Shown: in pieces, positions 1-59,166 of the stretch | How positions within the stretch are numbered: the stretch's first letter is position 1 | Layout: each line of letters opens with the position of its first letter | DNA from: Alphaproteobacteria bacterium | GTDB lineage: Bacteria > Pseudomonadota > Alphaproteobacteria > CAAHEQ01 > UBA3637 | NCBI GenBank assembly: GCA_017539265.1 | Contig: JAFYHG010000018.1 | Location: forward strand, 8,779-72,778 | DNA length: 64,000 nt | Reading direction: 5' to 3' | The notes under the pieces: generated by a model | What the model saw: the letters and a program-made list of their open reading frames with translations, nothing else | What the model was told of the DNA's origin: nothing | Databases searched by the model: none | Program-made: the position numbers and the translations under genes

Positions 1-2417
1 GTAATGGCATCACTATAAGCAACACAGGTGTAGCTATTACCGGTAATACAACCGTTGACGGAAATGAAGTATTAACCACCGCCAGCACTTTAGACGGCTC
101 AAAATTGGCAGACGCTTCTGTTGCTAAGAGTGCCTTGGAAACAAGTGTTCAAAACTCCTTGACCTTGGCTGATACCGCGGTGCAAAACATTACGACCGGT
201 ACCACAAATGGAACTATTTCGGTGGACGGATCAGATGTTGCCGTTTATGGATTAGGTTCTGCAGCTTTTGCTAACACAACCGATTTTGATGCGGCCGGCG
301 CCGCTGCTACGGCATTATCAGATGCCAAGGCTTACACGGATACCAAAGTAGCAGCCGAGACAGATCGTGCAAAAGGCGTTGAAGGTAACTTATCCGACTT
401 ATCAACAACGGATAAAACCACTCTGGTTGCTGCCATTAATGAAAATGTAACAGCAATTGCAACTGAAACAGCTCGTGCAACCGCTGTTGAAGAGGGCTTG
501 GATACACGTTTAACAACGGCTGAAGGAACAATCAGTTCTCATACTTCTTCCATTGCTGCAAATGCTTCTGCAATTGCGGCTGAGACAACTCGTGCAACCG
601 GTGTTGAAGCAGGTTTAAATACACGTTTGACAACGGCTGAAAGTAATATCAGTACAAATGCTTCTGCAATTGCTGCTGAAACAGCTCGTGCAACCGGTGT
701 TGAAGAAGGCCTAGATACACGTTTAACAACGGCTGAAGGAACGATCAGTTCTCATACAACTTCCATTGCCGCAAATGCTTCTGCAATTGCAGCTGAGGTA
801 GCTCGTGCAACCGGTGTTGAAAACGGCTTGAATACACGCTTAACATCGGCTGAAGGAACGATCAGTTCTCATACAACTTCCATTGCCGCAAATGCTTCTG
901 CAATTGCTGCTGAAACAGCTCGTGCAACCGGTGTTGAAGAAGGCTTGAATACACGCTTAACATCAGCTGAAGGAACAATCAGTTCTCATACGACTTCCAT
1001 TGCCGCAAATGCTTCTGCAATTGCTGCTGAAACAGCTCGTGCAACCGGTGTTGAAGAAGGCTTAGATACACGTTTAACAACGGCTGAAGGAACGATTAGT
1101 TCTCATACAACTTCCATTGCCGCAAATGCTTCTGCAATTGCTGCTGAAACAGAACGTGCAACTGGTGTTGAAGACGGCTTAAATACACGCTTAACATCGG
1201 CTGAAGGAACGATCAGTTCTCATACCACATCTATCGCTGCAAATGCTTCCGCAATTGCTGCTGAAACAGCCCGCGCAACCGGTGTTGAAGATGGCTTAAA
1301 TACACGCTTAACATCAGCTGAAGGAACAATCAGTTCTCAAGCAACTTCTATCGCTGCAAACGCTTCCGCAATTGCTGCTGAAACAGAACGCGCAACTGGT
1401 GTTGAAGACGGCTTGAATACACGCTTAACATCGGCTGAAGGAACAATTAGTTCCCACACATCTGCCATCGCTGCAAATGCTACGGCGATATCGGATGAGA
1501 CAGCCCGCGCAACTGGTGTTGAAGACGGCTTAAATACACGCTTGACAACGGCTGAAGGTAATATCAGTACAAATGCCACAGCAATTGCAACCGAGACAAC
1601 CCGTGCAACCGGCGTTGAAGAAGGCTTGAATACACGTTTGACGACGGCTGAAGGAACGATTAGTTCTCATACGACTTCTATCGCTGCAAATACTAGCGCA
1701 ATTGACGTCTTAAATGGAGAAGGTGAAGGCTCTGTAAAAAAGGCTTTGGCTGATGCAAAAGGTTATACAGACACCCGTGAAGAAGCGATTACCAACGCTT
1801 ACAGTGCTGCTATCGATACAGCAACTCTGATGGATGAAACCGGATATAACTTTGGTAACGGAGAAGGCGTTGTTTCGGCCGTAAAATCCATAGATAAGAA
1901 GGTTGGCGATATGGCCGCAATCGGTAATCGGGAAGGTTCTCACCTATCCCCAGCAAGCAATACCGCTGCTTTAACGGATGATTCAATTGCCGGCAATTTG
2001 GATTCTTTGGATGCCGCGGTTGTTGCAAACGATCAAGCCATTTTGGAAATACAAAATGCTTTGGGTGACCAAAGTCAGTTTGGCAAGAGCCGTTATCTGG
2101 ATAACACGATGACAAGTGCCGATGCGATGATGAGCTTGGATCGCAACTTGAACAAACTCGACAGACGCGTCCATCAAATGGAAAAAGAAATGAAGGGCGG
2201 ATTTGCTTCCGTGGCGGCATTGTCTGCCTTGGCTCCGAATGCCCGCGCTTCCGGCAACACTCAAATTGCCCTCGGTGCAGGTCTCTATCGCGATCATCAA
2301 GGTCTGGCCATCGGTGCCTATCATTACTTCAATGATAATATCCTGGCTAATATCGGTGGTGCTTACGGCGGTGATAAGAGTGCCATGCTCCGTGCGGGTG
2401 TTACATTCGGTTGGTAA
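1..2417 (+). CDS. Trimeric autotransporter adhesin (YadA-like), 5' end outside window
   Basis: The frame is open from base 3 with no stop upstream. The Thr/Ala/Asn-rich head and stalk is repetitive. The C-terminus (...GAYHYFNDNILANIGGAYGG...GVTFGW) resembles a YadA-type membrane anchor and the C-terminus of the second TAA at 49235-52726. Confidence 0.85.
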   Translation, partial: NGITISNTGVAITGNTTVDGNEVLTTASTLDGSKLADASVAKSALETSVQNSLTLADTAVQNITTGTTNGTISVDGSDVAVYGLGSAAFANTTDFDAAGAAATALSDAKAYTDTKVAAETDRAKGVEGNLSDLSTTDKTTLVAAINENVTAIATETARATAVEEGLDTRLTTAEGTISSHTSSIAANASAIAAETTRATGVEAGLNTRLTTAESNISTNASAIAAETARATGVEEGLDTRLTTAEGTISSHTTSIAANASAIAAEVARATGVENGLNTRLTSAEGTISSHTTSIAANASAIAAETARATGVEEGLNTRLTSAEGTISSHTTSIAANASAIAAETARATGVEEGLDTRLTTAEGTISSHTTSIAANASAIAAETERATGVEDGLNTRLTSAEGTISSHTTSIAANASAIAAETARATGVEDGLNTRLTSAEGTISSQATSIAANASAIAAETERATGVEDGLNTRLTSAEGTISSHTSAIAANATAISDETARATGVEDGLNTRLTTAEGNISTNATAIATETTRATGVEEGLNTRLTTAEGTISSHTTSIAANTSAIDVLNGEGEGSVKKALADAKGYTDTREEAITNAYSAAIDTATLMDETGYNFGNGEGVVSAVKSIDKKVGDMAAIGNREGSHLSPASNTAALTDDSIAGNLDSLDAAVVANDQAILEIQNALGDQSQFGKSRYLDNTMTSADAMMSLDRNLNKLDRRVHQMEKEMKGGFASVAALSALAPNARASGNTQIALGAGLYRDHQGLAIGAYHYFNDNILANIGGAYGGDKSAMLRAGVTFGW
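460..1700 (+). repeat. About 10 tandem 120-bp (40-aa) near-identical repeats inside the TAA stalk
   Basis: The unit TARATGVEEGL(D/N)TRLT(T/S)AEGTISSHTTSIAANASAIAAE recurs in the translation. The DNA periodicity is visible directly. Confidence 0.8.
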
Positions 2418-44060: not shown

Positions 44061-44432
44061 ATGCTGGAACAACAAATGATACAAAGCGATAACCTGAATA
44101 CCATTATGGCAAATTGCTATGGCACAGAGAATTATTACACAAACAACTATTTGAAATACAATTACACAGACGGAATTAAAACTTTCTGTGAACAGGCATC
44201 CGCTTATTGGTTATTGAGCCTTATCCAAGGGGTTTATACAAAATATCCTCAAATGCGGAAAGATTTAATTGCTATAACACTAATGGTAAATGATGACAAT
44301 ACTGCCATTATTACCTTTACCGATGAAAAAGGTCAATTTTATAAGCAGCGTATTCCTTATACGGATTGTCCGGTAGGAGAATGGAAATTTTATTTTGAAA
44401 ACAATGTATTTTTCTGGAATGGAGAATATTAA
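44061..44432 (+). CDS. Hypothetical protein
   Basis: It is a 123-aa ORF, first of three overlapping genes downstream of the cassette promoter. Confidence 0.4.
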   Translation: MLEQQMIQSDNLNTIMANCYGTENYYTNNYLKYNYTDGIKTFCEQASAYWLLSLIQGVYTKYPQMRKDLIAITLMVNDDNTAIITFTDEKGQFYKQRIPYTDCPVGEWKFYFENNVFFWNGEY

Positions 44433-44865
44433 TATGAATAAAGAACAAATTAAAGAAGCAATATTAGGGAAAAAAGATTGTCATGGGGAAGAAACACCTC
44501 TCTGTCAATTTTCAACATTCCATCCGGATATGGAAATGGTGGAGATATTATTAAAAGGTGCGGATATTAATAAATCTTTTAATCACCAACCGATGGCATG
44601 GGTATTTCAATTCTGTGAACCGAATTGGGATGAAATGCTCACGCTTTTGTTCAAATACAAATACCATGCCTTACATCTGGACAGGAAAAGCGATTTTGAA
44701 AGTTTACTGCAACTTTTATCCAGAGTTAAACCGGAAACCGTGATGTATGTCTTAAAAATAATGAAGAAACATAGGTTTCGACCGACATTTGAACAGATTG
44801 ATTACATAAATAAATCAAAAGAGGATTTTAAAAAGGAGTTTAAATGGAAAGACTGGGTGAAATGA
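44395..44865 (+). CDS. Hypothetical protein
   Basis: It is a 156-aa ORF that overlaps both neighbours (translational coupling). Confidence 0.4.
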   Translation: MKTMYFSGMENINMNKEQIKEAILGKKDCHGEETPLCQFSTFHPDMEMVEILLKGADINKSFNHQPMAWVFQFCEPNWDEMLTLLFKYKYHALHLDRKSDFESLLQLLSRVKPETVMYVLKIMKKHRFRPTFEQIDYINKSKEDFKKEFKWKDWVK

Positions 44866-45317
44866 CAAAAGGTTTGTTAAAAGCAATCAATGAAAGGAAT
44901 TGGCGAGAAATTAAAAGGCTGGTTCACTTGGGCGGAAACTTAAATGCCGCTTACGATCCGTTTGGAAATACACCCTTTTTATATGCCATGCATATTTTTA
45001 AGAAAGCGGAAGAAATTGAACGCTTGATTAAATTAGGTGGAGATGTGACCTATAAAAACAGGGTGGGAAAAACAGCCTTGATGATAGCAGTTGAAAATGG
45101 GTGTGAACCGATAACGCCTTGGGTTATGGTGGATTATGGAGCGGACATTAATGCACAGGATGCATTGGGAAACACCGCCTTAATGATTTGTTTAGAATCC
45201 AGATTATATACCAAGAAACTGCTTTATGCCCTGATAGATTACGGGGCAGATTTAACCAACCTGAAGAATAAGGAAGGGAAAACAGCGTTTGATATACTAT
45301 ATGATGAATTAGAGTAA
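44844..45317 (+). CDS. Ankyrin-repeat protein
   Basis: It has at least 3 ANK repeats (GNTPFLYAMHI.., GKTALMIAVENG.., GNTALMICLE.., GKTAFDIL). Confidence 0.7.
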   Translation: MERLGEMTKGLLKAINERNWREIKRLVHLGGNLNAAYDPFGNTPFLYAMHIFKKAEEIERLIKLGGDVTYKNRVGKTALMIAVENGCEPITPWVMVDYGADINAQDALGNTALMICLESRLYTKKLLYALIDYGADLTNLKNKEGKTAFDILYDELE

Positions 45318-45336
45318 TCACTTTTGCGGAGAAGTG

Positions 45337-47076
45337 TTAACTAATCCGCAAATCTTTAATAGTTAATTCTTTGGTATTATTATCTTGGGGAAAATCTTTC
45401 CTGTCTTTTTCCCCAAAACCATATTCTTTTCGGCAATTTTCTAATTTGTTCCAGTCTTGCACACGATATGCATAAAGAGCAGATCGGGGATACATAATAC
45501 GCTTTCTTTGTCCAACAAAGGGGATTGATGTCTTGGTTCGTTTCTTTTTATCCGCCATCCTCTTTTTTGCTAACCAACTGATACTTTTTTCCAGATAACT
45601 TGCAGCAACTTTAGGTGACATCCATCCTGCATGAAGTGCATAACGGAGATGTGGTGATCCACTTGGTTTCCCTTTTCCTTCCAATCCCAAAGATGATATA
45701 ACGGATTGATAATTATGACTTAAAAGCATTTCCTTAAATACTTCTTTTTCTCGTTCTCTTTGGGGAGTGTTTTCATTAGTATACGCAATATTAGCGATTG
45801 TTGATTTATCACTTAAAGTGCATTCCTCAAAATCAAATCTCTTTAAGAAAGAAATATTCTCCAGAACAAGGTTACATCCCTCAAAAGAAGTCTGACTAAA
45901 GGAAACATCTCCCCCGAAAAGAGTGTTCCTTATAATAAAGTGCCGACTTCTTGGCGTTGCGTTAAACTTCAATTCTGAATTATTTAATAAAAAGGCACTA
46001 GATCTATTAAAAATACAGTTATGGATATAAAAACTTGTGTGAAATAAACTATTTCTAAAATCAAACTTACCATTTACAGTGCACTGCTCAAATGTTATAG
46101 CGTGCTTAATTTCCCTTGCGGGTGCAAAATCTTTCTCAAAGAAGCAATGATTAAAAGTGACTCTTGCTCTTATCGCATCATGGGGACAGACATAGTTAGC
46201 GGAAAATAGACAATCTTTGAAGAAAACACCTTCCATTGGATTAAATGCCCCATGAAAGCATATCAAATTCCAAAAGAATTCCTGCTCTTTTCTACCAAAT
46301 TCTACATTTTCTATTATAATAATAGAGCGACAATATTCGGAAGGAACTATTTTATATTGATGAGGTTTCTTGATTGTCTTGGTTGCCTGCGGGTGTTGTA
46401 GAAATACAATCTTATCTATTTCCTTTTTAATTTCAGGAGATTTGGTTTGTTCCGCCAGCATATAAAAAGGAGTACGGATTTCTTTCAAAAAGTCTGGATA
46501 CAAAACGGTTGGCAAGTGTTTTGTCAGTTGAACGGGTGAATTTCCAAACTTTTTGAACAGGTAAAGCAGTTCTCTTAAAAAATATCTGCCATTATTACCG
46601 ACTTTAGTTCTTATTCGTGCTAATGCTCCGACCATTCCTTTGGCATCTGCTAGGTCTTCAATATCTTGTGTTGTAATTTTGCCTCTTTTGTAATCATCTG
46701 TATCAATTTCAAAACAGGCAGAAAAGATATCTTGGAAGGTACGGATACATAACCTTAATGTTTGGTCAACACCTATTGGGTAATAATCGGGATGCGTAAA
46801 TGCATCAGGATATCCCTTCTCTGGTTGTTTTGTTTTAATGTATGTTTGTAAAATGTTTGGATAGACATCCGTCCAAAAATCTAAATTCAAAGATTTGAAC
46901 CGACCTTCTGGTCCATAGACCAGTTCTTCTTGGTAATCTTCATCTAAAAAAAAGTTTGGGCGTTCCAGTTTCATAAAAAACTCATATAAGTTGAAAAAGT
47001 TGGGGGGATTATACCACAAAATCTCCCAAAAGTCCAGAAGAACAAGAAATGTTAAAAAATCCATCTTTTTTAACAT
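45337..47076 (-). CDS. Pentapeptide-repeat-containing protein (candidate effector)
   Basis: The C-terminal half is rich in (F/L/C)-x-x-x-F/N pentapeptide-like units (FNHCFFEKDFAPA..FEGCNLVLENISF). The N-terminus and start are uncertain. Confidence 0.5.
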   Translation of the reverse strand: MLKKMDFLTFLVLLDFWEILWYNPPNFFNLYEFFMKLERPNFFLDEDYQEELVYGPEGRFKSLNLDFWTDVYPNILQTYIKTKQPEKGYPDAFTHPDYYPIGVDQTLRLCIRTFQDIFSACFEIDTDDYKRGKITTQDIEDLADAKGMVGALARIRTKVGNNGRYFLRELLYLFKKFGNSPVQLTKHLPTVLYPDFLKEIRTPFYMLAEQTKSPEIKKEIDKIVFLQHPQATKTIKKPHQYKIVPSEYCRSIIIIENVEFGRKEQEFFWNLICFHGAFNPMEGVFFKDCLFSANYVCPHDAIRARVTFNHCFFEKDFAPAREIKHAITFEQCTVNGKFDFRNSLFHTSFYIHNCIFNRSSAFLLNNSELKFNATPRSRHFIIRNTLFGGDVSFSQTSFEGCNLVLENISFLKRFDFEECTLSDKSTIANIAYTNENTPQREREKEVFKEMLLSHNYQSVISSLGLEGKGKPSGSPHLRYALHAGWMSPKVAASYLEKSISWLAKKRMADKKKRTKTSIPFVGQRKRIMYPRSALYAYRVQDWNKLENCRKEYGFGEKDRKDFPQDNNTKELTIKDLRIS

Positions 47077-47185
47077 TGCTTTTAAAGGATTTGAAAAATA
47101 AGGCTATTTTATTTTAACCTATATGCCCCAAATTATGAAATGTTTAATTTTAAAGAAAAAACTTATATTTTTTAACATTTAGGGC

Positions 47186-47214
47186 TTGGCTTTTCAAAAA
47201 ATCGGCTGTATGCT
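47186..47214 (+). promoter_or_regulatory. Second copy of the promoter cassette (TTGGCT-17-TATGCT)
   Basis: It lies inside the 5' extension of track ORF 47186-47839, which argues for the later start. Confidence 0.45.
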
Positions 47215-47257
47215 CCCGGGCCGCAATAAAAGTTCAATTTTAACGAAAGGATACAAA

Positions 47258-47839
47258 ATGGTTAATCAAGTTTTTATTGACGACAAGAAAATTAAAGACA
47301 TCTTAACTTACATTCAGGGGATGAGACATGCTGAAATGATACGGATGATGTTTTTATGTTCACTGAATGGCATGAGGTCTATAAATTTCGCCTATCTCCA
47401 AGTAGGTGATGTTTATACTCCCGACTTTAAGGTTAAGGATGTCATTTGTTTGGATGCGGATAAAAATAAAGGAAAGTTCGGGTGTTCGTATTATCTTAAC
47501 AGCCAAATGAAGAAAGAGTTTAAGGAGTATTTAGGGTATTTGAAGGCTAAAAATGAAGAGATTACGCCAGAAATGTATTTGTTTACCTCACAAAAGATGG
47601 GAAAACCTTTCAACCGTGTGTCAATTTCACGGATGTTCGCAACCGTTTACAAAAAGTTCAACATTGAAGGAGCATCACACTTGGGGCGACATTTGTTCGT
47701 GAGTCGGCTTATCAATGCTGGAACTAATATCTGTTTGGTTCAGAAACTCGCCAACCATCGCAACATTGGCACAACCCAACGTTATTTTAATTATAACGAG
47801 AAAATGCTCTCAAATGCTGTGGAAAATGTAGTTTTATAG
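47258..47839 (+). CDS. FimB/FimE-like small tyrosine site-specific recombinase
   Basis: The 193-aa catalytic-domain-only architecture matches FimB/FimE. It aligns block-by-block with E. coli FimB/FimE (..LGRHLFVSRL.., ..LANHRNIGTTQRY). The start is set at ATG 47258 after the RBS GAAAGGATACAAA. Confidence 0.7.
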   Translation: MVNQVFIDDKKIKDILTYIQGMRHAEMIRMMFLCSLNGMRSINFAYLQVGDVYTPDFKVKDVICLDADKNKGKFGCSYYLNSQMKKEFKEYLGYLKAKNEEITPEMYLFTSQKMGKPFNRVSISRMFATVYKKFNIEGASHLGRHLFVSRLINAGTNICLVQKLANHRNIGTTQRYFNYNEKMLSNAVENVVL

Positions 47840-47850
47840 CTGTGTGGTAG

Positions 47851-48113
47851 CCTAAAAGTGTATATAATTTTAAGTTATATCTCTTTTTCTTCTTCTTGAA
47901 TTAGAACATGTTCTAATCCACAGAGTATTTTATAGATTCCGAGGAATCTTGTTTGAACTAGTAATTTTTTTAGTTCTTTAAATTTAGCATGTATTTGTAT
48001 CAAAATTATTTTTTCTTTAAAAATTTGATTGGAATTTTTCATAGTAATATCCTTTCTTAAAAAAATAAGGGAACATTAAAGTCCCCATCTATTTCAACTC
48101 ATACACTTTTAGG
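47851..48113. repeat. Perfect 13-bp inverted repeat pair flanking a 237-bp segment (candidate invertible switch or MITE)
   Basis: CCTAAAAGTGTAT lies at 47851-47863 and its reverse complement ATACACTTTTAGG at 48101-48113. The interior is AT-rich and holds the palindrome TTAGAACATGTTCTAA (47900-47915) and a 55-codon ORF on the minus strand (47874-48042). Confidence 0.6.
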
Positions 48114-48161
48114 TATTACATGTTATTTAATGATTGCGCCAAGTGTTTGATGCATTTGTTT

Positions 48162-49130
48162 TTATGGTGTTTTTTGTAATTTCTTAAATTGGTAAAATAC
48201 AGATGCCGGCGAAACACCGAAATAGTCGCCAATTTGTCTAAAACTCATTCCAGCTGTTTTCATTCGTACCAATTGTTTGCTATCCACTTTAAAGTCTTCC
48301 CAGCCTTTATTTTTAACTAAATCAAATTTTTTTATAACCCTGTAGATACTCGCTGGATGGGCATTTACCTTTTTTGCAATTTCTTTTCCCGAAACACCAG
48401 AAAAATACAATTTTTTTATAAGTTCTTCCTGCTTTCCCAACCGACTATTCAATTTAATTTGATCAGGTGTCCGGGTTAATCCCATTTTTTTAATTTCTTG
48501 TTCAAGAAGTTTATGAGAGCATCCTAATTTTTCTGCTATAAAGGAAATGGATCTTCCTTCAGCAAACATCTCTTTTATCTTATCCTTTTTAAGGTCTAAT
48601 TTCTTCAGTTTAGGTGCTTCTAAATTATGTAAAAGAATGAAATTATACAATGTTGAATAGCAAACATTATATTTTTGTGCAATGGCTTTTCTAGAGACAC
48701 CTTTTAATAATAGGTCTTGTATATCATCTTTATAGTGGTCTATTCTGGTCCAGTTATGGCGAGGTTCTGGTTTTAACCCCAATAATCTTTGTTCTTCTAA
48801 TGTTTTTTTGCCTTTTTTATAGACCTGTATACGATCAAGTGATGCGACATAAATACCGCTTTCTTTTTCAAATTTTATGAGTGTTCTGCGGCATATTTTC
48901 AATTTTTTACAGATATCTTCACGCGTTAGCCCTAATTTATAAAAATGTTTTATTTTTTCGGGATTAAGTTTTATTTCCCGAGTATGTGGTTCTCTTTTCC
49001 ACCCTAAATCTTTTAGATAATTACGAAGGGTAGAAAGACTTATATTCATACGATCCGCTATCCCGCCCAAGGAAAGGTCAGATTTGTAGAGTTCTTTTAA
49101 TTTGTCTATATCTAGTTCAATTTTGTTCAT
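48162..49130 (-). CDS. Protein made of six tandem Hin/resolvase-type HTH (HTH_7-like) domains
   Basis: The translation shows six units of about 50 aa, each with a G(V/M/R)S...IA...(V/C)S..T(L/V)Y..(L/I)KK(L/F) pattern. Confidence 0.55.
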   Translation of the reverse strand: MNKIELDIDKLKELYKSDLSLGGIADRMNISLSTLRNYLKDLGWKREPHTREIKLNPEKIKHFYKLGLTREDICKKLKICRRTLIKFEKESGIYVASLDRIQVYKKGKKTLEEQRLLGLKPEPRHNWTRIDHYKDDIQDLLLKGVSRKAIAQKYNVCYSTLYNFILLHNLEAPKLKKLDLKKDKIKEMFAEGRSISFIAEKLGCSHKLLEQEIKKMGLTRTPDQIKLNSRLGKQEELIKKLYFSGVSGKEIAKKVNAHPASIYRVIKKFDLVKNKGWEDFKVDSKQLVRMKTAGMSFRQIGDYFGVSPASVFYQFKKLQKTP

Positions 49131-49146
49131 TTATGGGCGGATTTTC

Positions 49147-49174
49147 AAAAAAAGCGGAGTATTTCTACTCCGCT
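49147..49174 (-). terminator. Rho-independent terminator downstream of TAA gene (minus strand)
   Basis: It has the hairpin AGCGGAGTA-loop-TACTCCGCT. A T-run follows on the minus strand. Confidence 0.6.
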
Positions 49175-49234
49175 CACTTAAATTAACTAATAGGAAGGGA
49201 GACCGAGAAATCAGTCTCCCCGGAGTTCTTCGCA

Positions 49235-52200
49235 TTAGAATCCAAAAGTCACACCGACTTTGTAGGACACGCTGTCGTTGCCACCATAGGCAGCACCGGC
49301 GTTCAACAATGTCCGGTCGTTGAGATAATGGAATGCACCAACAGCCAAGGCTTGGTTGTTCTTGTATCCGCCCAAAGCCGCACTGACTTGCGTTTTGTGG
49401 ACATGATCCAGAGGAACAAGACCTGCCAAAGCGTTGTTAGCAGCTAACCCGTTTTCCATCTTGGTTTCTAACTTGTTGATACGGCGATCAACGCGGGCGA
49501 ATTCAGCACCCAAGTTATCATTCAAGTTGGTCAAGAGGTCAGAAATGCTTGACGGATCACCAACGGCTTGTGCACCAACAGCACCACCATTAGCTTGTTC
49601 TTTTCCTTTAAAGAACTTTAAGTTCTCTAAAGAAGACAAATCGCCAACAGTTTCATCAACGGCTTCAAAAGCAGATTCTGTAGCTGATTCTAACAATGCA
49701 ATTTGGTTATCTGTGTAAGTATTAGCATTGGCCTCAGCTGTATCAGCAGCACCATATGCATCATATGTATTAGCTGCAATAGCACCACTGATAGATGTAA
49801 TCTTACCATCTGTTTCAACGATGTTCAAAGACAAACCATCAGCACCTGCTGCTTGTGATACATTAGCATCTAAAGCATTAACTTTACCATCTGCGTAAGT
49901 CTTTGCATCAGCCAAAGCATTAGCAGCAGCACCATATGCATCATATGTATTAGCTGCAATAGCACCGCTGATAGCTGTAATCTTACCATCTGTTTGTGTA
50001 ATACTTAATGATAAGCCATCAGCACCGGCTGCTTGTGATACATTAGCATCCAAAGCATTAACTTTACCATCTGCGTAATTTTTGGCATTGGTTTCTGCTG
50101 TATTAGCATAACCTTTTGCTTGAGTATTCACATAAGTAACTGCTTCTGCAAGAGAACCAACCTGTTCGGTTGATACTTCTAAAGCGGTACGCATTGTATC
50201 CAGATTACCGACACGGCTATCAAGACCTTTGATTTGTCCATCTAAAACAATGTCAGCACCTGTCAATGTTGTTGCAGCTGTCAGGTAGTTTGTATCGGCG
50301 TATTCGTTGTTAACTGCATTCGAATTGGCCGAAGTAATACCCAATGTGTTATCAACCCATTGTTGTTTCTCGTTGAAGATAGCTTCTGCTTCTGTCCGTG
50401 TATAGACATCTGCGAGATTTGCTTTGTTAGCATCCAAAGCATCCAAAGCACCACGAACTGTTGTCGTTGAGCCTTCGCCTTGCTTTAACACAGAACCGTC
50501 TACAGCTTCTTCATCCGCATAGTTAACATCACCGATGGTGTCATTTGTGCCTTTGATTTGCGCATCCAAAACAATGTCAGCACCTGTCAAGGTTGTTGCA
50601 TCCGTCAGGTAGTTTGTGTCGGCGTATTCGTTGTTAACTGCATTCGCATTAGCCGAAGTAATACCCAATGTGTCATCAACCCATTGTTGTTTTTGTGCAA
50701 AGATAGCTTCTGCTTCGCTTCTGACACCGGCAACAGCCGTTGTAACAGCGGTATTAATCTTGCCATCAACAACTTTGCCCAATGAATCATCATAGGCCGC
50801 TACACTAGCCTCATGAGTAGCTGTATCAGTTGTGAAGTTAGTATTAGCTGTTTGCAATGATCCTTCCCAATTATTCAGGTTAGTTACTGTTGCTTGGTCA
50901 GTCGCCATGGTAGTAGCAATCTTATCCTTATTTGCAACGCTGTCATCATAGTAACCTTTTAATTCGGATTGTCTATTGGCCAGAGCCGTTACATCAGATT
51001 CGTAAGCATTAACTAGGTCTGCTTTGATACCTGCTGTAGTTGCATCATCTGCTGATACTGCTGTTCCATTTTTCTTTAAGACATAGCCATCTTCTGACGC
51101 TTCGATGGTATAATGGTCACCTGCAGTATTCGTCAATTCATAATTGGCAATATCAACACTTCCAGTTCCTGCGCTAGATGCAGTGATATCAAGTTTACCA
51201 CCTAAATCACTCGTCTGAACTGTATCTGTTAATTCTGCAACCGCTGTGCTACCTGCGACAGAAGTAGAATTACCATCTTTATCATATGTGACATATGTAT
51301 AATCATCGGCAGTCAGAGTACCACTATCATAGGACAGGTCGGCCACAGCAGAAATACCATCTACAGTAGCAGCTGCAGAAGTTGCAGTGTAATCTGCCGA
51401 TGTATAGGAAGCACCAGCGACTAAATCTGTGGGATTACCTTCTGGATCTGTAAAGCCATAATCCGCGGCATCCGGTGCATCACCAGGAGCGTTTGCAGAA
51501 ATGCTTGACACTTTATCAGACAATGTCTTCAAAGCAGTGTCCAAAGCGGTATCAGCACCCGTCAAGGTTGTTGCAGCTGTCAGGTAATTTGTTCCGGTGT
51601 ATTCGTCGTTAACTGCATTCGCATTAGCCGAAGTAATACCCAATGTGTTATCAACCCAGGTTTGCTTTTCGTTGAAGATAGCTTCTGCATTATCCCATAA
51701 TGTTCCCAAAGCGGTATCTGTATAGTTTTTCGCATAAGTCTTTGCATTTGCTTCAGCTGTATTCGCTTTCGTTGTTGCATCAGTAGCAGCGGCTGTAATC
51801 GCTTCGGATTTAGCAGTAGCAGCAGCACCATAAGCATCATATGTATTTGCAGCAATGCTACCAGAAATACCAGTAATCACACCATTTTCTTGAGTGATGC
51901 TCAAAGCCAATTGACCATTACCTGCGGCTGCAGCTTGAGTTTCTGTTGCATTCAAAGCATCAATTGCATCACCAACTGTTTTGCTCACAGAACCATCGCC
52001 TGTACCATTCAAGGTAGCAATAGCGCTCTCGTTTGTTGTGATTTTACCTACAAGAGTAGAAGTAATACCAGAGTTGACGGCAGCTAATTGTTCTGTTCCC
52101 AATTTTGCTTGGTATGTATTCGCCAAATCTAAAGCATCAATTGCATCACCAACTGTTTTGCTCACAGAACCATCGCCTGTACCATTCAAGGTAGCAATAG

Positions 52201-52726
52201 CATCTGCATTGGCTTTAACCTGTGTATCCAATAACTTATCTGCGCCAGCCATTGTTGTTGCGCCTGTCAGATAATTTGTACCGGTATACGCATTTGTTAC
52301 CCCAGTTGTTCCGGTGGATAAATCAACGCCCAATGTTTTCTGGGAAATGACACCACCTGTTAATTCTACAAAATCACCAACAGCAGTATTGACAACGGCA
52401 TAATCACCAGCATCTGAACTACCCGCTAGCAATTGTGCTAAAGCATCACGAGTGTATTTGGGGTGAGCCGCTGCAAAATCTGCATCAATGGTGTAATCTG
52501 TTCCACCAAGATTTGTAGTGTAGGTGTCTGTCCCCGTTGTGATGGCTGTATGAAAATTAGTTAAGTTTGTTGCAACTGAAGCAGTAGGGTCATAAGCCTC
52601 ATCTGCTGCCTTTGCACCTGTGGCAACGATTAAGCCCACTGCAAAGGCATTAAGCAGAAAACATTTCTTCAAAACACTACGGTATCTCGCAGAAAGTTCT
52701 CTGATTGTTGTTTTTGTATATTTCAT
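49235..52726 (-). CDS. Trimeric autotransporter adhesin (YadA-like), 1163 aa, island-encoded
   Basis: It has a signal peptide, a Thr/Ala/Gly-rich passenger domain with long internal repeats, and a C-terminal anchor (ALGGYKNNQALAVGAFHYLNDRTLLNAGAAYGG...VGVTFGF) homologous to the C-terminus of the 1-2417 gene. Confidence 0.8.
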   Translation of the reverse strand: MKYTKTTIRELSARYRSVLKKCFLLNAFAVGLIVATGAKAADEAYDPTASVATNLTNFHTAITTGTDTYTTNLGGTDYTIDADFAAAHPKYTRDALAQLLAGSSDAGDYAVVNTAVGDFVELTGGVISQKTLGVDLSTGTTGVTNAYTGTNYLTGATTMAGADKLLDTQVKANADAIATLNGTGDGSVSKTVGDAIDALDLANTYQAKLGTEQLAAVNSGITSTLVGKITTNESAIATLNGTGDGSVSKTVGDAIDALNATETQAAAAGNGQLALSITQENGVITGISGSIAANTYDAYGAAATAKSEAITAAATDATTKANTAEANAKTYAKNYTDTALGTLWDNAEAIFNEKQTWVDNTLGITSANANAVNDEYTGTNYLTAATTLTGADTALDTALKTLSDKVSSISANAPGDAPDAADYGFTDPEGNPTDLVAGASYTSADYTATSAAATVDGISAVADLSYDSGTLTADDYTYVTYDKDGNSTSVAGSTAVAELTDTVQTSDLGGKLDITASSAGTGSVDIANYELTNTAGDHYTIEASEDGYVLKKNGTAVSADDATTAGIKADLVNAYESDVTALANRQSELKGYYDDSVANKDKIATTMATDQATVTNLNNWEGSLQTANTNFTTDTATHEASVAAYDDSLGKVVDGKINTAVTTAVAGVRSEAEAIFAQKQQWVDDTLGITSANANAVNNEYADTNYLTDATTLTGADIVLDAQIKGTNDTIGDVNYADEEAVDGSVLKQGEGSTTTVRGALDALDANKANLADVYTRTEAEAIFNEKQQWVDNTLGITSANSNAVNNEYADTNYLTAATTLTGADIVLDGQIKGLDSRVGNLDTMRTALEVSTEQVGSLAEAVTYVNTQAKGYANTAETNAKNYADGKVNALDANVSQAAGADGLSLSITQTDGKITAISGAIAANTYDAYGAAANALADAKTYADGKVNALDANVSQAAGADGLSLNIVETDGKITSISGAIAANTYDAYGAADTAEANANTYTDNQIALLESATESAFEAVDETVGDLSSLENLKFFKGKEQANGGAVGAQAVGDPSSISDLLTNLNDNLGAEFARVDRRINKLETKMENGLAANNALAGLVPLDHVHKTQVSAALGGYKNNQALAVGAFHYLNDRTLLNAGAAYGGNDSVSYKVGVTFGF

Positions 52727-53005
52727 TAACTATACCTTTCTTTTTAATATTAAAATTAAAGTTACGAGGAGTTCTCTTTTTCAAAACCCTCGTCCGTCAT
52801 CTTACACAAATGTTCCTTTATGAAATGATTTGAAGAAAAGTGATAAAAATAGCATACTTTTGTCTTATATATTATTGTATTTTCAATATGTTATATTCAA
52901 TTTTAATTTTTTTAAAAAAAATGTTAAAAAATGTTTGCAATTTAAGGAACTATTTTTTGCATATGAAATTATCGGCAATAAATAACTTTAACAAAAGGAT
53001 ACAAA

Positions 53006-53617
53006 ATGGCAACTATCGCATATATCAGGGTTAGCAGCGATAAACAAACCTGTTCTAACCAACACTTTACGATTAAAGAATACACAAAATCTCACAATAT
53101 CCACATTGATAAATGGGTTGAAGAGACTATTTCCAGCAAGAAACCTTTGGAAAAGCGGGAATTAGGCGTATTATTAAATAAAATGGATAAAGGCAGTTTA
53201 TTAATTGTAACGGAAATCAGCCGTCTTGCCCGTAATCTATACGAATTGGCGGGCATATTGCAAAATGCTATTAAGAACGACATTACTGTTATTAGTATCA
53301 AGGAAAACTATCAGTTCAAAAATGATATCCAGTCCAAAATTATGGCATATACTTTTGGGCTTGCCGCAGAAATTGAGCGTGATTTGATCTCAACCCGCAC
53401 TAAAATGTCATTGGATAAATTAAAAAAGCAAAATGTTAAATTAGGCAGACCATTCGGGGCGGAGACAAAATGTTTAAAACTATCCAAAAACCGCAAGAAA
53501 ATAAGGGAATTATTAGGAAAAGGTGTCAGTCAGGCCAAAATATCCAAAATCCTTGGCGTCCACCCGACAACCATGTGCCGGTTCTTGAAACGAGTGGATG
53601 TGTCAACCTGTTCCTGA
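53006..53617 (+). CDS. Serine recombinase (resolvase/invertase family, Hin/Gin-like)
   Basis: It has an N-terminal catalytic motif (IAYIRVSSDKQ), a small resolvase-type catalytic domain and a C-terminal HTH (GVSQAKISKILGVHPTTMCRFLKR). Confidence 0.8.
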   Translation: MATIAYIRVSSDKQTCSNQHFTIKEYTKSHNIHIDKWVEETISSKKPLEKRELGVLLNKMDKGSLLIVTEISRLARNLYELAGILQNAIKNDITVISIKENYQFKNDIQSKIMAYTFGLAAEIERDLISTRTKMSLDKLKKQNVKLGRPFGAETKCLKLSKNRKKIRELLGKGVSQAKISKILGVHPTTMCRFLKRVDVSTCS

Positions 53618-57006: not shown

Positions 57007-58779
57007 ATGTCATACCACTATCCTGGACTGATTATATTATACGGGCAATTTTATATTAGGGTTAGAATACCCGCCTGTTTAAGAATGATCGCCAGATGCA
57101 AAGAGATAAGATATTCATTACAAACAAAAATCTATCAGGAAGCAATTGAAAAGTACCACGTGGAATTTGCTCATTTACAAGCATTTTTAACAATTTTTAA
57201 GGATATAATTATGAAAGTAAATGAGAATAAACAATTAACTTTAACTGAAACTGATGTGGACAAATTATTGCTCCACAGGTTAGAACAAATCCAAACCTTT
57301 TTGGAAAATAATGTAGATGAAATCAAGTCCCGACATAAGTCCGAGGCAGATATTATTTTGCTCTCAAGGGATAAAAAAGAAGCGGATATCCGCAAATTAA
57401 TGCAGGATATGATTTTGGGTTATTTGAAAGGACTGGTGGATAAAAATAAGGCAAATATCACTTTGCGGATGATTTACACTCAACTCAAAAATAAAGAGAT
57501 TGAGTTGGGGTTAGTGCAACAGGGGGAAAAATATGATTGGTTAAAAGCATTTTCCACCCACATTAACCATTTAGACCATTATGCCCAAAAATCTGTTAAG
57601 GCAATCCAAGAGGAAAAGCATTATGCCCCAACCAACCCAAAGGTTATAACCCTTTTGCGCACTTATGATTCCATGAAAACGGATGAGCGAATTCACTGTT
57701 CTATGGCAGCAACCCATTGGAAAAAGTTTTTCAAACGCTATCTGACGATGAAAAAGAATATTAAAGGGACATCTAATAAAAGGTTGTGTAAATTGGAGAA
57801 ATGTATTTGGTTAGCATTTGCACTTATGAAACGGGAGTATGTAGAAGATGTAACCAAACAGGATTGTCGCCAACTTTGCGAACTGATACATCGAGTTCCG
57901 AAACGGTGGCAAGAAAAAATTAGGGGAGATGATATTTTCCAAATTTTGACAGATAACCCTGAAAAGGCACTATCTAAAACAACCATTCAAGGATACTTAA
58001 CAGTATTTAAGGAGTACATGCGTTATGCTGAAAGAGAGGAGATTATTTCCAATAATTTGAATAGCGCAGTAGATGTACCTATCAATGTAAAACCATTTCA
58101 GCGAGAACCCTTTACAGCGAAAGATTTACACAAGATGTTTAATTCAGAAACATATATAGATCCCCGTATCAGAAAGGATTTACCCAAATTCTGGATACCA
58201 ATTATAGCCCTTTACCATGGTTGTCGTTTGAATGAAATCTGTCAATTGGATGTCAATGATATTGTGCAAGAAAAGGGAATACCTTGTATCAGCATTAATG
58301 CAAATGCCCCAGATAAATCCGTTAAAAATAAAGGATCTGAACGAATAATACCACTACATCCAAAACTAATTGAAATGGGATTTTTATATTATGTTGAATA
58401 TCAAAAACGAGGGCACAAACGAAAATTGTTTGACCTAAAACAGATTAAAAACGGGATGTATGGTAGTCCGGTCCAACATTGGTTTGCACGATATTTAGAT
58501 AGTATTGGGATAACGGAAACAACCAAAGTTTTTCATTCGTTCCGGCATACTTTTGAGACAATGGCAACAGAAAAGAGAATTCCCCCACAATATCAAAATG
58601 CAATTTGTGGGTGGACAGAACAAGGCATTGGACAAAGACTTTATGCCCACAAGAAGGACATGAACATTATGTTAGAAGAAATCAGCAAAATTAACTATCC
58701 AATCAATCGTGAACTGTCAGAACTAAAGAAGTCTTTCATGGATTCATTTGTTGTCAGGTCTTTAAGGGCAAATGGATAA
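57007..58779 (+). CDS. Tyrosine-type phage/island integrase
   Basis: The C-terminal catalytic motifs are present (..HSFRHTFETMA.. box II, GWT, RLYAHK). It lies adjacent to the tRNA gene. The true start may be an internal Met. Confidence 0.8.
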   Translation: MSYHYPGLIILYGQFYIRVRIPACLRMIARCKEIRYSLQTKIYQEAIEKYHVEFAHLQAFLTIFKDIIMKVNENKQLTLTETDVDKLLLHRLEQIQTFLENNVDEIKSRHKSEADIILLSRDKKEADIRKLMQDMILGYLKGLVDKNKANITLRMIYTQLKNKEIELGLVQQGEKYDWLKAFSTHINHLDHYAQKSVKAIQEEKHYAPTNPKVITLLRTYDSMKTDERIHCSMAATHWKKFFKRYLTMKKNIKGTSNKRLCKLEKCIWLAFALMKREYVEDVTKQDCRQLCELIHRVPKRWQEKIRGDDIFQILTDNPEKALSKTTIQGYLTVFKEYMRYAEREEIISNNLNSAVDVPINVKPFQREPFTAKDLHKMFNSETYIDPRIRKDLPKFWIPIIALYHGCRLNEICQLDVNDIVQEKGIPCISINANAPDKSVKNKGSERIIPLHPKLIEMGFLYYVEYQKRGHKRKLFDLKQIKNGMYGSPVQHWFARYLDSIGITETTKVFHSFRHTFETMATEKRIPPQYQNAICGWTEQGIGQRLYAHKKDMNIMLEEISKINYPINRELSELKKSFMDSFVVRSLRANG

Positions 58780-59089: not shown

Positions 59090-59166
59090 TGGCGCGCCCG
59101 GCAGGATTCGAACTTACAACCTTCTGATCCGTAGTCAGATGCTCTATCCAATTGAGCTACGGGCGC
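59090..59166 (-). tRNA. tRNA-Arg (anticodon ACG)
   Basis: A 77-nt cloverleaf was folded by hand: acceptor GCGCCCG/CGGGCGC, D-arm GCTC..GAGC, anticodon stem TCTGA/TCAGA with loop CTACGGA, T-loop TTCGAAT, and a CCA encoded. The T-stem has one A-C mismatch. Confidence 0.8.

Follow-up and report, generated by a model that had tools for sequence, protein, structure and literature searches.

Genes of the locus

The stretch of DNA analyzed here (64,000 nucleotides of contig JAFYHG010000018.1, from an Alphaproteobacteria bacterium; referred to below as the window) contains a gene for a trimeric autotransporter adhesin (TAA) that is divergent from a serine recombinase gene and lies near two further genes, one encoding a protein with six helix-turn-helix (HTH) domains and the other a short tyrosine recombinase. 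All four genes had been placed in a preliminary description of the sequence, and their positions were confirmed by open reading frame (ORF) coordinates and domain matches. The spacer between the adhesin and the serine recombinase (52727-53005; 279 bp) was as AT-rich as that description stated, with a GC content of 22%. A YadA-like membrane anchor at the C-terminus of the adhesin places it among the TAAs. Taking the invertible segment, the enzyme and the split-promoter model described below as a whole, we consider it likely that the spacer holds a promoter-inversion switch, and the adhesin is probably phase-variable.

Inverted copies of the spacer segment in related loci

The window was compared with homologous loci and contigs (given L-numbers) and with recombinase homologs or groups of them (given P-numbers). 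Several animal-gut metagenomes contained DNA near-identical to the window locus, and the related loci came from uncultured gut or rumen Alphaproteobacteria, including Candidatus Enterousia. Two loci from different samples, L077 and L078, encode the same recombinase (P0008; 80% identical to the window enzyme) between identical flanks, and their sole difference is that the 124 bp between GTTCCTT and AAGGAAC are present as the exact reverse complement. Because a 7-bp repeat is far below the k-mer sizes used by assemblers, this difference is biological rather than an artefact. The orientation in L075 was that of L077, and AAGGAAC forms the very start of contig L076. When upstream regions were compared all against all, a second flip emerged, between L015 and L017; here 146 bp are inverted at 97.9% identity between identical flanks, and the recombinase of this clade is ~54% identical to the window enzyme. 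The comparison also gave a third, more diverged pair in opposite orientations (L030 and L038). Orthologs of the window segment therefore occur in both orientations in natural populations, as expected of a promoter-inversion switch (inverton).

The corresponding segment of the window is bounded by the core repeat GTTCCTT/AAGGAAC, which is perfect over 7 bp and matches at 9 of 11 positions when extended (52808-18 / 52944-54). Its right core ends 56 bp upstream of the serine recombinase start, so that the bounded segment sits directly beside a recombinase gene. Each core lies in a 26-bp imperfect dyad (Table 1), and neither dyad has a second copy in the window. The left dyad could be aligned with L005 and L007-9, its core and position match the left arm of L077/L078, and outward from the right core the sequence AAGGAACTATTTTTTGCATATG is identical in the window, L077 and L078. 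The central dinucleotide is TT at the left site and AA at the right site; in inverted dyads, this is the layout that would be expected of a serine invertase. The functional repeat was recognized solely because natural variants of related loci were compared, as 7 bp is invisible to single-sequence statistics. A scan of metagenome contigs with the pattern TTACAYAAANGTTCCTT was too loose to be of use, giving 120 chance matches, none of them with a recombinase.

In many of the homologous loci, the inverted repeat ahead of the recombinase gene is longer, at 11-18 bp (18 bp in L030, 17 in L033, 16 in L021 and L032, 12 in L009 and 11 in L007/8). Relative to the recombinase start, the left arm usually lies at about -250 to -185 (closer, at -153 to -97, in three loci) and the right arm at -90 to -31 (at -138 in one locus). 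The sequence of the repeat changes between clades at aligned positions, and a reciprocal change from T/A in L007/8 to A/T in L009 was observed.

Table 1. Features of the window discussed in the text (positions counted from the first nucleotide of the window).
Feature	Position	Strand	Description
Left site (siteL)	52801-52826		26-bp imperfect dyad CTTACACAAATG-TT-CCTTTATGAAAT; contains GTTCCTT (52812-52818)
Invertible segment	52819-52943		125-bp interior; orientation as in L077
Right site (siteR)	52936-52961		26-bp imperfect dyad TGCAATTTAAGG-AA-CTATTTTTTGCA; contains AAGGAAC (52944-52950)
Putative mobile -35 hexamer TTGCAA	52935-52940	+	Right end of the invertible segment
Putative fixed -10 hexamer TAAGAT	52799-52804	-	Outside the switch, facing the adhesin
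Trimeric autotransporter adhesin	49235-52726	-	1163 aa; YadA_anchor PF03895, 7.3e-12, residues 1109-1163
Serine recombinase	53006-53617	+	203 aa; Resolvase PF00239 (1.6e-29) and C-terminal HTH; divergent from the adhesin
Six-HTH protein	48162-49130	-	322 aa; HTH_7, HTH_38, HTH_23 and HTH_28 matches
Hairpin with T-run	49152-49175	-	Between the adhesin and six-HTH genes; from terminator scan and folding
Short tyrosine recombinase	47258-47839	+	193 aa; Phage_integrase catalytic domain only, PF00589
12-6-12 perfect dyad	47048-47077		AATGTTAAAAAA-TCCATC-TTTTTTAACATT; ~180 bp upstream of the tyrosine recombinase; unique in the window
Second pair of dyad arms	47139-47179		17-nt spacer; overlaps the likely tyrosine recombinase promoter
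Island integrase	57007-58779	+	590 aa; DUF6538 and Phage_integrase; adjoins tRNA-Arg
tRNA-Arg	59090-59166	-	End of the low-GC island

The preliminary description had placed a possible switch in this spacer, and the inverted orthologous segments bear out that much of it; the boundaries it gave (52765-52982) were wrong. They derived from a 9-bp inverted repeat, TTAAAGTTA at 52756-52764 and TAACTTTAA at 52983-52991, which does exist, although the spacer has two other inverted repeats of the same length. Of 500 dinucleotide-preserving shuffles of the spacer, 331 (66%) contained an inverted repeat of 9 bp or more. The right arm of the described repeat differs in the closest relative, L005, and overlaps the ribosome-binding region of the recombinase; the left arm falls beyond the conserved block, in DNA specific to the adhesin. 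Since shuffled sequences commonly match its length and its arms are not conserved, we treated the repeat as a chance occurrence. Moreover, the flips in L077/L078 end elsewhere, and an inversion at the 9-bp arms would drag the ribosome-binding region of the recombinase along with it. That this repeat bounds an invertible element is therefore hardly credible.

With regard to the same stretch of DNA, two contigs from different samples, L004 and L074, both begin at the position corresponding to 52910 of the window, inside a T7A8 palindrome of the invertible segment. A break of assembly or coverage in extremely AT-rich DNA is a likelier cause of this shared start than a recombination end.

A proposed promoter divided by the recombination site

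We propose that the serine recombinase would cut at the center of both sites and flip the segment between them. The segment would carry just the -35 half of a promoter (TTGCAA, with an A-tract ahead of it), and the matching -10 hexamer, TAAGAT, would be fixed beyond the left site. Inversion would then assemble TTGCAA-17 nt-TAAGAT and place a transcription start ~65 nt upstream of the adhesin ATG (the ON state); for the window strain, the predicted joint sequence of the inverted form is CTTACACAAATGTTCCTTAAATTGCAAACA. In the orientation found in the window, CATTTC sits at the -35 position of the adhesin, so that the promoter would be incomplete (OFF); by this reading, the adhesin would be OFF in the window and in the six contigs near-identical to it (L001-4, L073 and L074).

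The two hexamers recur in related loci. In the window, L005, L007-9, L010 and L077, the end of the segment nearer the recombinase carries TTGCA[A/T] with an A-tract before it; the left flank carries variants of the -10 hexamer, namely TAAGAT in the window, TAATAT in L005/7/8, TAATGT in L009 and TAACAT in L077. When inverted, the segments of the window, L005, L007, L008, L009 and L077 read TTGCA[A/T]-17 nt-TAnnnT, with the core repeat inside the promoter spacer. Judged by hexamers only, this consensus reading holds in 6 further relatives, in 2 of which the assembled form was itself observed; the assembled forms are TTGCAT-17-TAACAT in L078 and TTGAAA-17-TATCAG in L017. The cargo ATG (that is, the start of the gene in the position of the adhesin) lies 6 nt past the -10 hexamer in L009/L200 and in L017, a distance that fits leaderless transcripts and therefore supports the 17-nt register. 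We chose this register since every clade has it and since it agrees with the leaderless cargo starts.

A promoter lying wholly inside the segment (TTAACA-16-TAAAAT, 52927-52900, minus strand) was also considered and was rejected, as it is not conserved in relatives. A different arrangement was seen in L048 (P0069 group), an island with an autotransporter, where a TGCAT -35-like hexamer is present at both segment ends (~2770-2800 and ~2925-2960) and a complete TTGCAT-17-TAATAT faces the cargo in the sole orientation seen (10 contigs); the L048 switch may be a locked-ON derivative.

Exchangeable genes beside a conserved module

The locus is within a low-GC island (~38.1-59.1 kb) that terminates at a tRNA-Arg gene beside an integrase gene, and the latter is syntenic in L007, L011, L037 and L048. 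In islands L007, L008 and L009, the tyrosine recombinase is 89-92% and the serine recombinase 77-80% identical to that of the window, and the DNA between the two genes differs. The genes found there encode lipoproteins and membrane proteins in L007, two small TRL-type lipoproteins in L008, and a secreted PLD nuclease, a flavodoxin and an Fe-S protein in L009, and all of them are on the strand directed away from the serine recombinase. Homology between islands ends at the tyrosine recombinase stop codon. It restarts at a motif that occurs once in the window (52801-52827), ~205 bp before the start of the serine recombinase, and it is at exactly the corresponding point that contigs of the P0111 group with differing neighbors converge. 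These limits of homology show that the adhesin is one of several alternative occupants of a slot and that the serine recombinase carries ~205 bp of its own upstream DNA along with it.

The nearest upstream gene was divergent from the recombinase in 27 of 35 loci. Such genes encoded TAAs (L045, L013), a 1036-aa classical autotransporter (L048), a type IV pilin-like protein (L077), TRL lipoproteins, a secreted nuclease, glycan enzymes of the GT11, GT2, RgpF and TupA types, and restriction-modification or helicase proteins, and in a Bacteroidaceae relative the nearest upstream gene encoded a SusC-like receptor. These are the usual phase-variable classes of genes. The association of recombinase and adhesin noted in the preliminary description thus recurs, since this serine recombinase family is repeatedly found beside surface adhesins, whereas the further suggestion of a system dedicated to one adhesin did not hold, the switch and recombinase being conserved and the neighboring gene exchangeable. 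What the sequence comparisons show instead is that switch and recombinase form one conserved unit, carried by a family of tRNA-integrated islands.

The serine recombinase

The family closest to the serine recombinase is that of the master DNA invertase Mpi (NCBIfam NF009949; E 1.1e-71, 195/203 profile positions), and the match extends along the entire protein. The sole PDB relative found by sequence is Gin (4M6F), and the match is weak (30 bits, E 4e-6). By eye, the N-terminus (MATIAYIRVSS) is Hin-like. The consensus of the Mpi target repeats, reportedly given as ARACGTWCGT by Coyne and colleagues in 2003, has no match in the spacer (52727-53005), and when up to one mismatch was allowed, 5 matches were found in the window against 10.9 expected. 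The enzyme is presumed to be the invertase of the adjacent switch.

An alternative is that the upstream block is res-like, that the protein resolves multimers of the excised island, and that the left site is the crossover point for exchange between islands. Homology between islands does begin exactly at the left site, and homology likewise begins at res site I of Tn3-family elements; in addition, a 46%-identical relative of the enzyme is encoded beside a Tn3 transposase in L027. Because of that context, family similarity alone does not decide between invertase and resolvase, and it is the observed flips that do: the segment occurs inverted in nature, which is not predicted for a resolution site. 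The spacer has two inverted sites with matching cores rather than three subsites sharing a half-site motif, the outer half-sites of the two dyads differ (TTACA/TTTCA vs. TGCA), and no transposase is present at this locus. A resolution system is thus improbable, and we return to inversion as the preferred reading.

Weighing an active switch in the window

Several points count against an active promoter-inversion switch in the window itself. The repeat of the window is not significant by itself. A flipped copy of the window's own sequence was not found, as the window, L001-3 and L073 share one orientation across the whole switch and the partial contigs L004 and L074 are likewise in window orientation. 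Orientation variants were sought among contigs with the exact window recombinase or near-identical variants of it and in the P0069, P0009, P0111 and P0026 groups, and none were found; no flip was seen in ~30 contigs of three other groups. The recombinase scored 240.8 bits with the Mpi model, which is below the family cut-off of 272, and its L027 relative adjoins a transposase, as described above. Its link to the switch is one of adjacency only, although this adjacency is invariable. The assignment of ON and OFF states is based on consensus hexamers in DNA of 22% GC, where promoter-like matches are at chance level, and promoter scoring across the joints was noisy, with alternative registers sometimes preferred. 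Finally, the hairpin with a T-run ahead of the six-HTH gene argues against simple co-transcription of that gene with the adhesin.

Some of these points would also be explained if the window held a fossil switch: relatives flip, but the short imperfect repeat of the window would have ceased to recombine, leaving the spacer as a fixed regulatory region between divergent genes. All seven near-identical sequences are in one orientation, the perfect repeat has 7 bp vs. 11-18 bp in some relatives, and the P0009 group is apparently without the core. However, the 7-bp core and right flank of the window are exactly those with which L077 and L078 flip, and the ipuS element of Escherichia coli functions with 7-bp repeats (PMC6083910). 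The recombinase ORF is intact, with its YIRVSS motif present, and assemblies report the majority orientation only, so that a single orientation for the window sequence is a weak test. We therefore regard a fossil switch as unlikely and prefer a working one. The orientation heterogeneity that the preliminary description had anticipated at the spacer was accordingly seen in orthologs (L077/L078 and L015/L017) and not among the near-identical contigs of the window.

In the P0009 group (L058-L062), a recombinase 79% identical to that of the window is encoded in a chromosomal context (clpB-like, sodB, secA), and the core repeat appears to have been lost upstream of it; this recombinase may be a decayed or domesticated copy.

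The tyrosine recombinase and its dyad

The tyrosine recombinase had been described as FimB/E-like. It scored 34.2 and 15.6 bits with the FimB/FimE models (NF007370/NF007371), for which the cut-offs are 221/222, and this assignment was not upheld. Its best NCBIfam match is the archaeal XerA (56.7 bits), and its best PDB matches are XerC-like proteins and XerA; it is a member of a large, highly conserved family in these bacteria and is 88-92% conserved in islands with other cargo. In place of the FimB/E layout, in which a promoter segment lies between two inverted repeats and occurs in two orientations, one perfect dyad and one wide-spaced pair of arms were found upstream of the gene. The dyad arms covary in distant relatives, with compensatory changes (AATGCTACAAAA/TTTTGTAACATT and AATGTTAAAGAA/TTCTTTAACATT); conservation of the dyad was seen in L016/17 and L209, and the arrangement of dyad plus second pair in L205 and L209. 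The cluster of sites lies no more than ~1.5 kb from the tyrosine recombinase gene even where this gene is far from any adhesin. The dyad is a probable core site of the tyrosine recombinase, at which the enzyme could resolve or integrate. The 12-6-12 dyad is also the exact point at which L008 becomes homologous to other islands. The enzyme might conceivably invert the DNA between the dyad (47048-77) and the second pair (47139-79), but the spacers are unequal (6 vs. 17 nt) and no variants were seen.

Two observations speak for control of the adhesin by the tyrosine recombinase, acting by itself or jointly with the serine recombinase: an exact copy of the dyad arm AATGTTAAAAAA is present within the invertible segment (52920-52931), and in Bacteroides fragilis mpi lies head-to-head with a tyrosine invertase gene, tsr19 (PMC4747536). 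Nevertheless, this 12-mer is not conserved in L005 and L007-9, only one full dyad exists in the 64 kb, and in related islands the tyrosine recombinase gene either has unrelated cargo beside it or is in the opposite orientation at a distance of 4.6 kb. The site cluster moves with the tyrosine recombinase rather than with the adhesin, and no orientation variants were detected around the gene in 6 aligned loci or in L199. Control of the adhesin by the tyrosine recombinase, alone or jointly, is therefore very improbable, and the tie to the adhesin proposed in the preliminary description was not sustained; the tyrosine recombinase is an island backbone gene and appears to have no link to adhesin control. 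The arm copy in the switch, just upstream of the -35 hexamer, is one of only four exact copies in the 64 kb; it is not conserved in relatives and may simply be part of an A-tract.

The six-HTH protein

The description of this protein as six tandem HTH domains was correct: it consists of six ~50-aa repeats of the resolvase type, which can be aligned with the HTH of the recombinase (repeat 5 is 33% identical to it over 42 aa). Only 6 clusters of this family were present among 5.8 billion proteins, all of them from this lineage. The gene is downstream of the adhesin and in the same direction, and in related islands it is syntenic with adhesin and switch. In L205-208, a 57%-identical member is directly downstream of a different adhesin, an autotransporter, beside the same module of recombinase and segment. 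The member in L211 (70% identical) comes after a TAA that shares 87% identity with the window TAA at its C-terminus, and that in L005 (36% identical) directly abuts the switch. This synteny links the six-HTH gene to the switch-controlled unit.

The hairpin between the adhesin and six-HTH genes (GCGGAGTA...TACTCCGC) precedes the six-HTH gene in the window, in L205 (7948-7973) and in L211 (~616-645) despite their differing adhesins. As the hairpin is kept while the adhesin differs, we assign it to the six-HTH module, in which it would act as a terminator or attenuator. In the mechanism that we propose, the six-HTH protein would be a DNA-binding partner made in the ON phase that regulates other genes or that binds, and perhaps modulates, the switch, although both roles are guesswork.

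Comparison with known inversion systems

Much work has been done on promoter inversion in Bacteroides, enterobacteria and clostridia, and phase variation of TAAs usually occurs via simple repeats. To our knowledge, promoter inversion has hardly been described in Alphaproteobacteria, and the uncultured gut and rumen lineages concerned here are without genetics. In the literature that we searched, no such system was described in Alphaproteobacteria and no recombinase-controlled TAA was described.

As in the invertible polysaccharide promoters of B. fragilis that are controlled by Mpi, a short promoter-bearing segment with flanking inverted repeats would govern a surface structure. A small tyrosine recombinase gene is also co-localized with a serine recombinase gene in both cases, mpi adjoining tsr19 (PMC4747536). 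We take this neighborhood as a parallel for the window locus and not as evidence, and the two genes of the window are not head-to-head as mpi and tsr19 are. Mpi acts on 13 distant sites, whereas the switch of the window is directly upstream of the recombinase gene on a mobile island; the window enzyme also falls short of the Mpi family threshold, the Mpi repeat consensus is absent from the switch and the host is alphaproteobacterial.

The window shares with Hin/hix (the Salmonella H segment) and Gin/Cin/Pin a serine recombinase with a Hin-like N-terminus, 26-bp imperfect inverted dyads and an asymmetric central dinucleotide, and, as in hixL/hixR, the repeat shared by its two sites comprises the core and part of one half-site. 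It differs from Hin and Gin in that sequence similarity is weak (30 bits), the recombinase gene is outside the invertible DNA, starting 56 bp beyond the right core, and the segment measures 125 bp vs. 1-3 kb. Hin and Gin segments carry a whole promoter, whereas that of the window is apparently split across the site.

Along with the Mpi-controlled promoters and Hin/hix, ipuS of uropathogenic E. coli is among the closest analogues; it is a small element with 7-bp inverted repeats that lies beside a recombinase gene and controls ipuR, encoding an HTH regulator, and upaE, encoding an autotransporter; there, too, the unit is an autotransporter adhesin plus an HTH regulator (PMC6083910). Unlike in the window, tyrosine recombinases flip ipuS, and the transcription start and whole promoter are inside the 260-bp element (PMC6083910). 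The regulator is ahead of the adhesin and of the LuxR type, not a six-HTH array. With fimS and FimB/FimE (type 1 fimbriae) the window shares what is probably ON/OFF control of an adhesin through inversion of a short promoter segment beside recombinase genes, and its tyrosine recombinase is of similar size (~195 aa). However, the flipping enzyme of the window is most likely the serine recombinase, and its tyrosine recombinase has a single 12-6-12 dyad and no promoter-flanking repeats.

Regulators of the MrpJ/PapX type are DNA-binding proteins whose genes lie at the distal end of phase-variable fimbrial operons. The six-HTH gene has the same distal position in a probably phase-variable adhesin unit, which suggests that other genes may be coupled to the ON phase. 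It departs from this type in its six tandem resolvase-type HTH domains, its membership in a family of 6 clusters and the terminator-like hairpin before it. The window locus thus differs from the known sets in having its own enzyme clade and host, an island-borne switch with exchangeable cargo, an apparently split promoter and a six-HTH companion.

If the switch operates as proposed, a serine invertase can switch a trimeric autotransporter, an island-borne module of switch plus recombinase can impose ON/OFF control on interchangeable cargo, and a recombination site within the promoter spacer can separate the -35 from the -10 hexamer, a compact design for synthetic recombinase logic. A broader proposal, tentative and in its full form rather unlikely, is that the module is a portable phase-variation platform on tRNA-integrated islands of uncultured gut Alphaproteobacteria. 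A lone -35/UP half-promoter would be shuttled between a fixed -10 hexamer at the cargo slot and the recombinase side, so that any gene in the slot would become phase-variable, whether it encoded a TAA, an autotransporter, a pilin, a lipoprotein, a glycosyltransferase or a restriction-modification protein. The six-HTH array, which has no catalytic domain, would be produced in the ON phase alone, and its binding to the recombinase sites would stabilize or bias the switch.

Other features of the window

A second TAA gene, outside the island (105-2417, plus strand; 770 aa, with a YadA anchor), contains ~117-bp tandem repeats in which AAGGAAC recurs every 117 bp from 736 to 1444. It is a candidate for length variation through repeat slippage.

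The block at 44061-47839, which comprises a DUF6876 gene, an ankyrin gene, a 579-aa ORF and the tyrosine recombinase gene, is inverted relative to positions 2821-7906 of L205 (reverse complement), and the region from the six-HTH gene through the integrase gene is colinear between the window and L205. Site-specific inversion of the block was considered and rejected, as its ends are without inverted repeats. For the 579-aa ORF (45337-47076, minus strand), the start called in L001, Met35 (46974), is the probable one. No Pfam domain matched this ORF; it has a C-terminal excisionase-like HTH and, by eye, pentapeptide-like repeats. Weak homologs of this ORF adjoin a tyrosine or serine recombinase gene in L007, L009 and L019/20.

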